13,154 nt of DNA from Leptolyngbyaceae cyanobacterium (GCA_050331235.1 JBHJHA010000108.1:1-13154); one strand, 5' to 3'. Positions 246 to 5,377 are shown, counted from the first letter of the stretch. The notes: a model not told the origin generated them from the letters alone. Program-made: numbers and translations.

Positions 246-998
246 TTAAGCAGCCTGTTTGCGACGCAGTCTCAATGAGCTGAGAGCGCCAATGGCTAAA
301 ACGCCTAAAACAGAAGCGGGTTCAGGTACTTTTTCGACTGTCAGGCTAGTCATCGTCCAGCCCGAGTTTTCTTCGATTGCTGTAAAGCGAAAGCGATCGC
401 CGAACAAATCATTAGAATCATTAGTGGCGCTTTCAAATAGGAAGGGTGACTCCCCTTTGGGAACATCGAGCCCATTTGCTTGCCACACTAAACCGCCATC
501 ATTTCTAACCTGAACAAAAAACTTTTCAGTCTCTTCACCAGGTTGAAATGCTCTCAAGAAAGTAGCGCTCACAAGTTAGATTTCCTGGGAGAAGCCAAAA
601 ATTAAGCTTTCGTTGCCAGGGTCGGCTCCATCAACTGTACCTGCACTGCCATCCGTATTCTCATCACTCTTCACTGCTAAACCTGCCCGGTTGTAGCGGA
701 CTTGACCGTTAGCCCCGTTGCCCTCACGGCCTCGAACAAAGACTTCCAAGGGGTTGCCTGTAGAGGTCAGGAGTGGCTTATCGTTATTCGGGGTAAAATA
801 CAGCCTCTGTCCTTCGCCATAGGTCGTACCCCAGCCATCTTGAAAACCATATTCGCCTTTGTAATCTTTAGTCTCGTCAGGACTACCGAACGGCTTGAAG
901 TCGTAAGTGAGTGTTCCAGCTGCAGCAGCGCCTACTGACATACCGCCAGAAATAGAGGCGACCGCAACAGCAAGCAGACTCTTGGTGAAAAAGTTCAT
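246..998 (-). pseudogene. PEP-CTERM sorting-domain surface protein (~250 codons) interrupted by one in-frame TAA at 578-576
   Basis: ORFs 576..998 and 246..572 share a frame: ...FGFSQEI*LVSATFLRAFQ.... The upstream part has a signal-peptide-like N-terminus (MNFFTKSLLAVAVASISGGMSVGAAAA). The downstream part ends in VPEP + hydrophobic helix + basic tail (VPEPASVLGVLAIGALSSLRLRRKQAA). Could be a true nonsense mutation or a base-call error. Confidence 0.8.
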
Positions 999-1352: not shown

Positions 1353-3683
1353 TTATATATCCCCTGGTAAGACGTCTACGCGAGCAAACTTGAGGCCAGT
1401 GACTCCTTGCAAAGGTTCGACATCACCCTGTGTGATCGCAGTGCCGATCCATCCTTCTCGCTGGAGATATCGCAAATATTCCTGATATTCCTTCCACTCT
1501 TCATCGGTGGAATACACCAAGGTTAAACAACCGGGCTGAGTAATGCGATCGTGGGTTTCGGCATCTAGGGCCTTGTCAATACGTTTTTTGACAATTTCAT
1601 ACCGGGTATCGCGGGTGCCGCGGACATCGAACAGACGCTCAGTATTTTCGTCGTGGGTAATGTCAACAGTGCAGTCTTGTACGAGTACCAGATGGGTAAT
1701 ATCCATATCGGTTGCATGTTTTGCTTTGAGGCGAAAGCCGGTACGTGCACAGTCGCACACTGCCCTGAGTTGCTCATACCGCAAGCTCCGTAAGTGAAAT
1801 GGCGAGAACCGAGAATCGATGGAGCTACCGGCATAAATCATGTGATCAATCCCATCGGTCGACTCGATGTCACAGTAGTGGGGGGAAACCTGCTGCATCG
1901 TGTGTTGCCATCGCTGCCAAGTATCACGCAGCGACAGGTTAATATTCTGTACTGTTTTGTCGTAAACTGATCGCGCGGTATAGACACAGCCATGATTGCG
2001 GTCCTTTGCAGCTTCGTAGGTCGCAATTGCCTGACTGACCGCTTCGCCACAGGTGGCAAAATAATCAAAATGGACTTCCAAATTGTCCTGGAGATATCGC
2101 AGCAGGGTGATCTCCGCATCAACAGTGACTCCCTGCTGAAGCTGCCCAATTTTTTCTAACAGATCATCATGGAACTGCTCTGCAAAGGCATGGTTAACGG
2201 TATGGCAAACGGCATTGGCGATCGCCAATGCCAGGCGAAACTGTGCTAGCAAATCTTGCTGAATGGCCCGATTGCGTTCATTAGAAGAACCGCGGATATC
2301 CGAAATGCCATATAGCGGATAGACATCACTGAATGTAATGGGCGCAGGGGGCAGGCCCAGGCTACGGCGCTCGGCTTCTTCTTCAAACCGCCAACGGACG
2401 GAGGCATGAATATGCATAAACCGCTCGTTGACGCTTTGCCGCATGGCAAATGTCAGAGCGGGGATTAGCGTTTCGCCATTGTGTTCGTCAATAGCATCGA
2501 AGGCATCTGGTTGGTCACTCATCAGTCCCACCGCCCCCAAAAGCTGTGGTCCTGTCTGCAGGCGCACTGATTTCACCACCAATGGCAAGATTAGCAGCGA
2601 CTTTGCCCCGCGGTCTCGTAGCAAATGCTCGCAGGCAGAAAAGTCAGGGGCGCTGAGATCACTCAGATTGAGTACTTTGCCCTGGGTCGCTGATTGGCAT
2701 AAAACCGATCGCTGGAGGCAATCTGCCGGTAAAGGATGGTTAGACCATTCTGGCTGGTCAAGATCGAGATATAGCGCGGCATTGCCCCCTTCTGCAGTCA
2801 AAATTAAACTGTCGGTGGCGCGAAAGAGACGTCTTAGCAGCGTATTCGCCTGGCGAAAGCGATGCGATTGTAGAATCGATTCGCGATCAAGTAGCAGATG
2901 CACCAATCGCTGGGTGATTTCTCGACTGCTGACATCCATCCCCTCAACGAGGACGATGCCGCTGGCCCGGTAGGTCTGAGGATTGAGCTTTTGCACCACT
3001 CGCTGTAAAGGGGAGGTGGCATCATGAAGCTGCTGTAGAATTGCCGCCGAATCGGGCACCTCAGTCCAGCACTCGTCTAGGGCTGCTCTCACTGAGGCAT
3101 CAAGGGACAGCAAACGCACCTGATCGCTACTCACAGTGAACTCAACAAACCGTTCGCGATCGCCCCGCAAAGGCGTCACTGAGATGATCAGCGGCTCATG
3201 GAGCCAGCGAGACGGCAACAGCCCTGATTGCTGATAATGATCTGCCAAAATGGCATTCAATACATGCCGCCGAATCCGCTCTCGCACCCAGAGCTGATCT
3301 GCCTCCGATAGCCGCTGTAGTACTACATCACCCAAGGTCGGGGGGGTGTCAATCATGCCTACTAGGTGGCGAAAGCGATTGCTGGTCCACTCAATGCGGT
3401 GGTTAGATAAATCGATGGCAGCAACCAAAAGGCGGCTGTGCTGCTCCAACACTGACCACCAGCTTGGGATTTGGCTAGACGGTGATGGAGCGGCCAATGC
3501 TGCCTTGGTTACGGCAGGCGGAGGGCTCGCTATCTTCGTCGAAGGGAACTGCGGCGACGGGGCATCAGTCATCGTGTGGTCCTCGCGATCATCAATCCGG
3601 GCTGATGCAGTGAATCCGCGATCGCCCGTAGCAGTTGGTTGATTGGTTTCGAACTGAGCGTTGAGTAGAGTCCCCTGATGCAC
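1353..3683 (-). CDS. GAF domain-containing signalling protein (PAS-like + GAF + uncharacterised, possibly cyclase-like, C-terminal domain)
   Basis: 776-codon ORF. GAF signature: GKVLNLSDL...GAKSLLILPLVV...LLGAVGLMSDQPDAFDAIDE...LIPALTFAM (~2880-2436). PAS-like start (LVAAIDLSNHRIEWTSNRFRHLVG) and end (GIVLVEGMDVS). The true start may be ATG at 3572, preceded by GAGGA at 8 nt, rather than GTG at 3683. Confidence 0.85.
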   Translation of the reverse strand: MHQGTLLNAQFETNQPTATGDRGFTASARIDDREDHTMTDAPSPQFPSTKIASPPPAVTKAALAAPSPSSQIPSWWSVLEQHSRLLVAAIDLSNHRIEWTSNRFRHLVGMIDTPPTLGDVVLQRLSEADQLWVRERIRRHVLNAILADHYQQSGLLPSRWLHEPLIISVTPLRGDRERFVEFTVSSDQVRLLSLDASVRAALDECWTEVPDSAAILQQLHDATSPLQRVVQKLNPQTYRASGIVLVEGMDVSSREITQRLVHLLLDRESILQSHRFRQANTLLRRLFRATDSLILTAEGGNAALYLDLDQPEWSNHPLPADCLQRSVLCQSATQGKVLNLSDLSAPDFSACEHLLRDRGAKSLLILPLVVKSVRLQTGPQLLGAVGLMSDQPDAFDAIDEHNGETLIPALTFAMRQSVNERFMHIHASVRWRFEEEAERRSLGLPPAPITFSDVYPLYGISDIRGSSNERNRAIQQDLLAQFRLALAIANAVCHTVNHAFAEQFHDDLLEKIGQLQQGVTVDAEITLLRYLQDNLEVHFDYFATCGEAVSQAIATYEAAKDRNHGCVYTARSVYDKTVQNINLSLRDTWQRWQHTMQQVSPHYCDIESTDGIDHMIYAGSSIDSRFSPFHLRSLRYEQLRAVCDCARTGFRLKAKHATDMDITHLVLVQDCTVDITHDENTERLFDVRGTRDTRYEIVKKRIDKALDAETHDRITQPGCLTLVYSTDEEWKEYQEYLRYLQREGWIGTAITQGDVEPLQGVTGLKFARVDVLPGDI

Positions 3684-3892: not shown

Positions 3893-5377
3893 ATGTTTGA
3901 AGCCCTTTCTGAACGTTTTGACGCGGCCTGGAAAAAGCTCCGGGGGCAAGACAAGATTAGTGAAGCCAACATTCAGGAGGCTCTGAAAGATGTCCGCCGG
4001 GCGCTACTAGAGGCGGATGTCAATCTCCAGGTGGTCAAAAATTTTATTGCTGAGGTCCAGAGTCAGGCCCTCGGTGCAGAGGTGATTTCTGGCGTTAATC
4101 CTGGTCAGCAATTCATCAAGATTGTGAACGAGGAGATGACCAAGTTGATGGGGGAAACAAATGCCCCTTTAGCCAAGGCTGAGACAGCGCCAACGGTCAT
4201 CCTAATGGCGGGTTTGCAGGGTACAGGTAAAACGACGGCCTCGGCCAAGCTGGCCCTACACCTTCGGAAAGAGTCGCGATCGGCCATGATGGTGGCAACG
4301 GATGTTTATCGTCCTGCCGCTGTTGACCAGCTCATTACCCTGGGTAAACAAATTGACATCCCTGTATTTGACCTAGGCACTGACGCCAATCCCGTTGACA
4401 TTGCTCGCCAAGGGATCGCCAAAGCCAAGGAAGACGGCGTTGACACCGTAATTGTCGATACGGCCGGTCGCCTACAAATTGACCCCAAGATGATGGCCGA
4501 GCTGGCCCAAATCAAAGCGGCCATTCACCCCGATGAGGTTTTGCTCGTTGTAGATGCTATGACGGGGCAAGAAGCGGCTAACCTGACGCGGACCTTTCAT
4601 GATGAAATTGGCATTACCGGAGCCATTCTCACCAAGATGGATGGCGATGCTCGTGGGGGCGCAGCGCTATCCGTGCGGCAGATTTCGGGCAAGCCAATCA
4701 AATTTATCGGGGTGGGCGAAAAAGTTGAGGCGCTACAGCCCTTTTATCCCGATCGCATGGCCTCCCGCATTCTAGGCATGGGCGATGTCCTCACGCTGGT
4801 TGAAAAGGCTCAGGAAGCGGTTGATTTTGCCGATGCTGAAAAACTACAGAACAAAATCCTTGAAGCCAAGTTTGACTTTGATGACTTTCTCAAGCAAACG
4901 CGGTTGATGAAAAATATGGGCTCCCTCGGCGGCATCATGAAGATGATTCCTGGCATGGCGGGCAAAATTTCTGACGACCAATTACAAGAGGGGGAAACCC
5001 AGTTACGCCGAGTTGAAGCCATGATCAACTCCATGACTAAAGATGAGCGCAAAAATCCAGAGTTGCTTTCGGGCTCCCCCAGTCGTCGTCGCCGCATCGC
5101 CAGAGGAGCCGGTTATCAAGACCGAGACGTTAGCAAACTGGTCAGCGATTTTCAGAAAATGCGCAGCATGATGCAGCAGATGGGCTCTGGTCAAATGGGG
5201 ATGCCCGGCATGGGGGGTGGTTTTCCAGGCATGGGTGGCGGCTTCCCAGGCATGGGCGGCGGGATGCCTGGTATGGGTGGCGGAGCTCAGCCCGGTTTTC
5301 GTGGCTATCCGGGCATGGGCGGCGGCAAAAAGAAAAAGAAAAAAGGCAAGAAGAAGAAAGGCTTTGGCGACCTCTAA
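3893..5377 (+). CDS. ffh: Signal recognition particle protein Ffh (SRP54)
   Basis: ALLEADV N-domain motif; GTPase motifs GLQGTGKTT, DVYRPAA, DTAGR and TKMDGDARGG; RILGMGD; Met-rich M domain with SRRRRIARGAG. Confidence 0.99.
   Translation: MFEALSERFDAAWKKLRGQDKISEANIQEALKDVRRALLEADVNLQVVKNFIAEVQSQALGAEVISGVNPGQQFIKIVNEEMTKLMGETNAPLAKAETAPTVILMAGLQGTGKTTASAKLALHLRKESRSAMMVATDVYRPAAVDQLITLGKQIDIPVFDLGTDANPVDIARQGIAKAKEDGVDTVIVDTAGRLQIDPKMMAELAQIKAAIHPDEVLLVVDAMTGQEAANLTRTFHDEIGITGAILTKMDGDARGGAALSVRQISGKPIKFIGVGEKVEALQPFYPDRMASRILGMGDVLTLVEKAQEAVDFADAEKLQNKILEAKFDFDDFLKQTRLMKNMGSLGGIMKMIPGMAGKISDDQLQEGETQLRRVEAMINSMTKDERKNPELLSGSPSRRRRIARGAGYQDRDVSKLVSDFQKMRSMMQQMGSGQMGMPGMGGGFPGMGGGFPGMGGGMPGMGGGAQPGFRGYPGMGGGKKKKKKGKKKKGFGDL
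5201..5284 (+). repeat. Four in-frame 21-nt units encoding (M/F)PGMGGG in the Ffh C-terminal tail
   Basis: Protein reads MPGMGGG FPGMGGG FPGMGGG MPGMGGG. The DNA copies differ at synonymous positions. A Lys-rich end follows. Confidence 0.85.

Follow-up and report, generated by a model that had tools for sequence, protein, structure and literature searches.

A divergent class III cyclase-like domain with a helical insert behind a PAS-GAF sensor in a Leptolyngbyaceae cyanobacterium

The 13,154-nucleotide stretch of DNA from a Leptolyngbyaceae cyanobacterium analyzed here (GCA_050331235.1, JBHJHA010000108.1:1-13154; hereafter, the window) encodes, on the minus strand, a 776-amino acid (aa) protein (1353..3683, start codon GTG 3683) that bears only the database label ‘GAF domain-containing' and that is, on balance, predicted to be a soluble nucleotide cyclase of the class III type that is gated by its sensor module and makes a 3',5'-cyclic nucleoside monophosphate. 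The class III cyclase-homology fold of its C-terminal domain is confirmed by structural modeling. The gene is present in a single copy in the genome. The likelier start of the open reading frame (ORF) is ATG 3572, which yields 739 aa, because an identical 739-aa protein record (P0003) exists; residue numbers count from the GTG throughout. Sequence and models together give the domain order PAS-like, GAF, linker helix and C-terminal domain. All the motifs that a preliminary description, made from the sequence of the window, had listed for this protein are found in the ORF in the same order, and the PAS-GAF front end proposed there is borne out by a match to the Pfam family PF01590 and by a model of the N-terminal half.

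The C-terminal 354 residues of the ORF (P0002) were modeled with AlphaFold2 without templates, and the five models agree in their predicted local distance difference test scores (pLDDT 95.5-96.1; 96.1 for the C-terminal model, with a predicted template modeling score of 0.91). All the rows among the Foldseek matches listed are class III cyclases, and a Foldseek-independent search of 48,161 chains returned class III cyclases at ranks 1-19 (Z 11.6-9.1), followed by the inactive domain of AdvA (7sua, Z 8.9), Cas10/Cmr2 (7.2) and the GGDEF protein DgcZ (7.0), the GGDEF and Cas10 palm matches extending over ∼135 residues at Z ∼7. The alignment with Cya2 has Z 12.1 and a root-mean-square deviation (rmsd) of 3.1 over 183/199 residues, and that with CyaB has Z 11.5, at a structural sequence identity to class III cyclases of only 5-13%. 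The arm hairpin between beta4 and beta5 is present in the model (strands 251-254 and 264-266 in P0002 numbering), and its pairs 254-266 and 256-264 rank 4 and 9 in a mean-field coevolution analysis of 340 non-cyanobacterial sequences alone (effective number of sequences 197; 61,425 pairs). The remote cyclase fold suggested in the preliminary description is thus what the model and both searches returned, rather than an unrelated fold.

The cyclase likeness is confirmed by the predicted structure, the sequence alone being insufficient for significance. Searches of P0002 against Pfam, NCBIfam, PADLOC and PDB sequences returned no significant match, Pfam recognized only the GAF domain in the whole protein, and the alignment profile run against PDB retrieved only GAF domains and, at E 0.31, a single phage tail fibre. 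The genome contains 17 matches to PF00211, this gene not being one of them; hhalign comparison with the cyclases of the same genome yielded non-significant probabilities of 0.1-2% in a partly wrong register, and the best hit of the family hidden Markov model against 15 canonical cyclases had E 0.2. In ungapped sliding of profiles, the best register aligns D462 with the first Asp of cyclases and G689 with the Gly in the motif of beta5. Given that the class III fold and metal site are alike but the profile and some residue tests failed, the family is best described as a divergent variant whose membership is unproven. One of the canonical cyclase matches of the genome (G000:C53:1900-2436, L103) contains an internal TAA.

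Conservation was assessed in 415 deduplicated homologues (195 cyanobacterial and 220 other), derived from 461 profile hits of which 454 had a match of 300-420 residues. The two Asp proposed earlier as metal ligands, D462 and D610, are encoded at exactly the positions given for them (2300-2298 and 1856-1854), and each is retained in 414 of the 415 sequences, so that the lack of conservation that would have spoken against the proposal was not encountered. They are 148 residues apart in 373/415 homologues (range 144-154), compared with 44 in five cyclases of the same genome, because a helical insert of ∼104 aa sits between alpha1 and alpha2. An insert of ∼100 aa had been anticipated; the model moves it from ∼2200-1900 to ∼2270-1960, since 1960-1890 encodes the helix before beta2. 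This region (model residues 42-158) finds only generic helical-bundle matches among the 48,161 chains, and its mean column conservation is 0.46, against 0.78 for beta1-alpha1 and 0.74 for beta5-alpha4.

The alignment with CyaB begins at 28=222 (model=CyaB), so that D462 falls on CyaB D234 if beta1 is free of gaps; D234 is the first Asp of CyaB, as fixed by the numbering of T351 and the chain alignment. The same arithmetic leads to residues 1017 of CyaC, 448 of Cya2 and 302 of Rv1900c, which we take to be the first metal-binding Asp in each case. Whole-domain superposition and weak beta1-beta3 coevolution (37-192 in P0002 numbering, ranks 109 and 136) imply that D462 and D610 would be adjacent in space. 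The sole exception at both positions among the 415 sequences is P0134 from Oscillatoria sp. FACHB-1406 (717 aa), a degenerate member in which both Asp, S466 and R701 are gone and the remainder is kept, and which is a natural dead control.

Beyond the two Asp, R470, D477, R571, Q597, G611, G689, R694, E696, K699, R701, K704, R713, T715 and R768 are conserved in at least 97% of the homologues; S466 is near-invariant, as are R470, G611, G689, K699, R701, K704, R713 and R768. The Arg of the KKR motif, singled out in the preliminary description, is R701 and indeed proved conserved (408/415). If residues are counted backwards from the PG-x-I strand, R701 would emerge as the most likely equivalent of the catalytic Arg, alpha4 then having one additional turn; this register is not the one ranked first by ungapped profile sliding, and the residue four positions ahead is I697, not Asn. 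The replacement of KG by QG noted earlier also holds, with Gln at the position of the Lys in 366/415 sequences and Lys in at least 6 of 535 members; the position is located through the alignment with the C2 domain of AC2, in which the Lys is presumably K1065. In contrast, the Asp of the FDV motif (D686), for which conservation had likewise been proposed, is not invariant (174/220 non-cyanobacterial and 164/195 cyanobacterial sequences), and GTRD, which does occur where GDTVN was expected, turned out to be the cyanobacterial form of a motif, GAYN/GAYD, that runs through the family. In place of the canonical set of Asn, Arg and Lys, the family may use its invariant basic residues. A small clade (L165, L171, L182, L184, L185 and L198) keeps both Asp and has Gly for R701, with Ala for S466 in five of its six members.

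Comparison with established class III cyclases (PF00211; Synechocystis Cya2 2W01, P. aeruginosa CyaB 3R5G, Spirulina CyaC 1WC1, soluble guanylyl cyclase and mammalian adenylyl cyclase) shows likeness in the predicted fold, across almost the entire domain (Z 11-12), the linker helix, the arm hairpin, the two acidic metal positions and the sensor-linker-catalytic order. Unlike these enzymes, which lack the insert between alpha1 and alpha2, the present family carries 104 aa there, gives no profile match, has an extended, basic alpha4 with an additional hairpin after it, and does not keep the Asn, the beta4 Arg or the KG Lys.

The PAS-like domain has a helical insert ahead of its last strand and a D-V-S/T motif at its end (N-terminal model, pLDDT 89.3), and, aligned jointly with the GAF domain, it matches phytochrome PAS-GAF pairs over model range 18-352 (∼235-250 residues, rmsd ∼13). 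The GAF domain matches 3o5y (Z 14.4, rmsd 2.9) and 1ykd (Z 12.3). The latter, a tandem-GAF structure, comes from the GAF/PAS cyanobacterial adenylyl cyclases, which we take to be those named CyaB1 and CyaB2 and in which GAF and PAS domains also precede a class III domain; here, by comparison, a PAS-like domain and a single GAF precede a divergent, insert-bearing catalytic domain. The N-terminal half is homologous in distant members (hhalign 99.8%), so this architecture is family-wide, and a search for longer fused forms, a weak test, found one GAF-only match. The linker, with H426, W431 and F433 conserved in at least 97% of the homologues, is likely to be the equivalent of the cyclase-transducing element (CTE) or helical domain, judging from the model. 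The sensor-linker-cyclase order, with a CTE linker, is the usual class III layout (PMC9552081). A photoreceptor reading of the PAS-GAF pair, as a phytochrome or cyanobacteriochrome, found no clear support. No invariant GAF Cys was seen (C351 occurs in 86/119 cyanobacterial homologues and not in the non-cyanobacterial consensus), and the N-terminal model contains no PHY domain.

As a working mechanism, the PAS-like/GAF module would sense a ligand or state, and the signal would shift the linker helix and so gate the catalytic domain. Cyclase domains would pair head-to-tail as a dimer, two metal ions held by D462 and D610 would turn a nucleoside triphosphate (NTP) into its 3',5'-cyclic nucleotide, and basic residues of alpha4, R701 first among them, might stand in for the Asn, Arg and Lys that handle phosphate in other cyclases.

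In a tree of 242 thinned sequences, the 66 cyanobacterial ones form one clade on a long branch (0.97 substitutions/site, support 1.0), and this clade differs from the other members at several sites. Position 606 is Ile, Leu or Val in the 195 cyanobacterial sequences and Lys or Arg in the 220 others, position 607 is almost uniformly Glu in the former only, position 688 is Arg or Lys as opposed to Asp or Glu, and positions 691-692 are Arg-Asp as opposed to Tyr-Asn/Asp. These changes are likely to cluster around the base pocket. Position 606 is coupled to 586, in a helix (164-184 in P0002 numbering, rank 12/61,425), and it is to 586 that the basic group shifts in cyanobacteria. The couplings of 607 with 613, 686 and 684 rank 53, 73 and 88 (the first two being 185-191 and 185-264 in P0002 numbering), which would assign 607 to the site occupied by Lys in adenylyl and by Glu in guanylyl cyclases; the Cya2 chain alignment has Glu at that specificity site. 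Purine specificity is set by Lys with Asp or Thr in adenylyl cyclases and by Glu with Cys or Gly in guanylyl cyclases. Neither pair is complete here, where E607 or, depending on the register, I606 is combined with D686. GTP is slightly favored because E607, accompanied by D613 and D686 in what is probably the base pocket, resembles guanylyl cyclases. In our judgement, if the enzyme is active, GTP is the leading candidate although short of an even chance, a pyrimidine (CTP or UTP) is a possible second and ATP a somewhat more doubtful third.

A number of observations weigh against the cyclase prediction. The 17 PF00211 matches in the genome imply that no missing activity needs this gene; nor was a linked receptor found in cyanobacteria (80 loci and the carrier genomes). 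Canonical class III chemistry employs six catalytic residues (PMC4626032), and only the two Asp are clear here, the catalytic Asn being unidentifiable, the beta4 Arg absent (beta4 has THL) and the KG Lys represented by Gln. Profile sliding failed to return the registers of alpha4, beta4 and the C-terminus as best hits and set D610 two residues ahead of the second cyclase Asp, the coupling of S466 with R701 rests on about two events, the coevolution signal is shallow, and the pattern in non-cyanobacterial sequences would place 606, not 607, at the specificity site. Furthermore, a cyclase fold can be inactive, as it is in AdvA (10.64898/2026.04.03.716176). A dead enzyme is argued against by the near-invariance of both Asp.

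The domain could instead be a metal-dependent enzyme performing other nucleotide chemistry on the same palm, such as joining of NTPs into linear or cyclic dinucleotides, nucleotidylation of a target via the insert, or NTP hydrolysis. The Asp are kept while the cyclization residues are swapped for invariant basic ones (R470, R571, R694, K699, R701, K704, R713 and R768), the insert has a fixed length, and the palms of GGDEF and Cas10 proteins are related in structure; we nevertheless consider such chemistry unlikely, given that class III enzymes match with Z 9-12 over the whole domain, arm and C-terminal strands included, as against ∼7 for Cmr2 and DgcZ, and that the beta2-beta3 turn reads T-D-G, with no GGDEF/GGDD signature. 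An equally unlikely pseudo-enzyme would bind metal-nucleotide without turnover and signal by conformation or by protein binding via the insert. The missing catalytic Asn, beta4 Arg and KG Lys would fit, as would the existence of the degenerate P0134, and AdvA of Acinetobacter baumannii (7SUA) is a precedent for a divergent cyclase fold that is missed by sequence and works without catalysis. However, AdvA keeps only 2/8 active-site residues and lacks the arm (10.64898/2026.04.03.716176), whereas the present family keeps the arm and, across a span down to ∼34% identity, both Asp, and conservation peaks in its catalytic core, not in the insert. That the likeness to cyclases is an artefact of modeling, or that a generic alpha/beta sandwich arose by convergence, is extremely improbable: despite the low structural identity and the lack of a significant profile match, the models were built without templates and agree with one another, the alignment spans the greater part of the target domain, and the invariant D462 coincides with the catalytic Asp.

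The genomic neighborhood bears on the possible role of a cyclase. The gene is divergent from ffh, both in the window (ffh at 3893-5377(+)) and at 64 of the 80 cyanobacterial loci, where the other neighbors (DCC1-like, kinase-TPR and YHS) recur only within lineages. The ffh-divergent layout is also seen at one non-cyanobacterial locus (L160:6494-7831(-)), by chance or through old linkage. The 80 non-cyanobacterial metagenome loci, mostly not Bacteroidota-like, have no recurring neighbor, the largest real cluster comprising ∼6-7 loci; 66 of 132 neighbors, from 50 of these loci, were scanned, and one is an HD-PycTM protein. At that Bacteroidota-type locus (L202:10236-15240), the HD-PycTM gene (408 aa) lies tail-to-tail with the homologue and is followed by a divergent 1233-aa ORF that, by eye, looks like a fusion of a metallophosphoesterase with an outer-membrane barrel. 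A gene for an ion channel with a cyclic nucleotide-binding domain is located directly downstream of one other non-cyanobacterial homologue (L147:1661-2926(+)), a single case.

The HD-PycTM neighbor, together with the presence of the PycC enzymes (7R65, 8JSF and 8JSZ) among the structural matches (Z 9.4-11.2), raises the possibility that the protein is an anti-phage cyclase of the Pycsar kind, with a PycTM or TIR protein as the effector that it activates. PycC shares with this family the class III fold, the two Asp and the rewritten base-reading residues, and has an aromatic residue two positions before the first Asp (Y50, F60 and F100; PMC11224242). The protein described here differs in its sensor domains, its insert, its stable ffh neighborhood and the lack of an effector in cyanobacterial carriers, and I460, not an aromatic residue, precedes D462 by two in 119/119 cyanobacterial homologues. 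Of 201 genomes of the phylum, 8 yielded a match to PF18967 (PycTM), but none of these is among the 17 carriers, and no match was found in the genome of origin; the L202 HD-PycTM protein matches only its own locus among all the loci and has no significant match in this genome. No PycTM or PycTIR gene recurs as a neighbor in the 80 cyanobacterial loci, no genome-wide search for PycTIR having been made, and the query protein (P0001) has no PADLOC match. The stability on the ffh side and the failure to find relatives in viral contigs or PycTM in the 17 carriers all point away from defense, which makes the Pycsar-like alternative very unlikely and housekeeping signaling, not phage defense, the likely role of the predicted cyclase. 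A broader and decidedly tentative proposal is that of an unrecognised, widespread class III branch with a rebuilt active site, engaged in everyday, non-defense signaling with a messenger other than cyclic AMP. In Bacteroidota, this messenger may be a cyclic pyrimidine or similar compound that is read and cleared by HD-PycTM, and filamentous cyanobacteria may have a re-specified version, probably making cyclic GMP, that has dropped the HD-PycTM partner.

The family is large: P0002 matches 880 clusters at 50% identity and thousands at 90%, and the family is missed by profile-based censuses of cyclic nucleotide signaling. The non-cyanobacterial members among the matches listed show 34-41% identity and mostly have 750-880 aa; those named include a Leptospiraceae bacterium, Chondrinema (Bacteroidota), Haliovirga (Fusobacteriota) and many Lutibacter, in agreement with the relatives in Bacteroidota mentioned in the preliminary description. 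Cyanobacterial carriers account for 17 of the 201 genomes sampled; the gene is found in 12/13 genomes of the same genus and 13/18 of the same taxonomic family, and the carriers named are mainly filamentous (Nodosilinea, Halomicronema, Microcoleus and Laspinema). No relatives were found in viral contigs, and there are two matches in plasmid records. The family PF27174 (YeeD, Pfam 38.1) is precomputed on all 120 Bacteroidota-type homologues listed and on the closest Atlas cluster, where 32% of members carry it (score 0.94), but not on any of the 120 cyanobacterial matches listed; part of the family is therefore already catalogued. Neither a paper with the PF27174 accession nor a description of the family was found in the literature searched, which covers few of the subscription journals. 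New here are the pocket that sets the cyanobacterial clade apart, the analysis of registers and the failure to find a PycTM partner in cyanobacterial carriers. Should the family be active, a cyclase would be added to many Bacteroidota and filamentous cyanobacteria, and the class III fold would be able to catalyze without the Asn/Lys set of canonical enzymes. It is precisely at the likely base-reading positions that the cyanobacterial clade differs from the others, which makes the two a natural pair for the study of specificity change.

Table 1. Features of the PAS-GAF-cyclase-like protein gene, in window coordinates
Feature	Position	Strand	Basis
PAS-like domain, ∼residues 84-250	2934..3434	-	N-terminal model and phytochrome PAS-GAF alignments
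GAF domain with flanking helices, ∼residues 251-422	2418..2933	-	Pfam PF01590, E 3.5e-5, residues 282-399
Linker helix	2337..2417	-	model residues 1-25 inside alignments to soluble guanylyl cyclase, AC5, AC9 and Rv1625c
Class III cyclase-homology fold, ∼residues 450-772, with insert and beta4-beta5 arm hairpin	1368..2336	-	model
D462, first likely metal-binding Asp	2298..2300	-	414/415; end of beta1 in model
Helical insert, ∼104 aa, boundaries approximate	1960..2270	-	model secondary structure and Asp spacing
E607, candidate base-specificity residue	1863..1865	-	Glu in 193/195 cyanobacterial sequences; Gln/Tyr/His/Phe elsewhere
D610, second likely metal-binding Asp, beta2-beta3 turn	1854..1856	-	414/415; turn position in model
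Basic alpha4 stretch K699-K704	1572..1589	-	K699 in 414, R701 in 408 and K704 in 414 of 415
Q759 at KG Lys position	1407..1409	-	end of AC2 C2 alignment, 349=1077

Two further observations concern the remainder of the window. The product of the gene at 246-998(-) is of the secreted type and shows a weak PEP-CTERM match at its C-terminus (E 6e-4); the gene contains an in-frame TAA at 578-576, so that it is either a pseudogene or affected by a sequencing error. Just downstream of it, at 137-198, lies a near-perfect 62-bp palindrome (31-nucleotide arms, 97%, no spacer) that may be a bidirectional terminator or result from an error in assembly.

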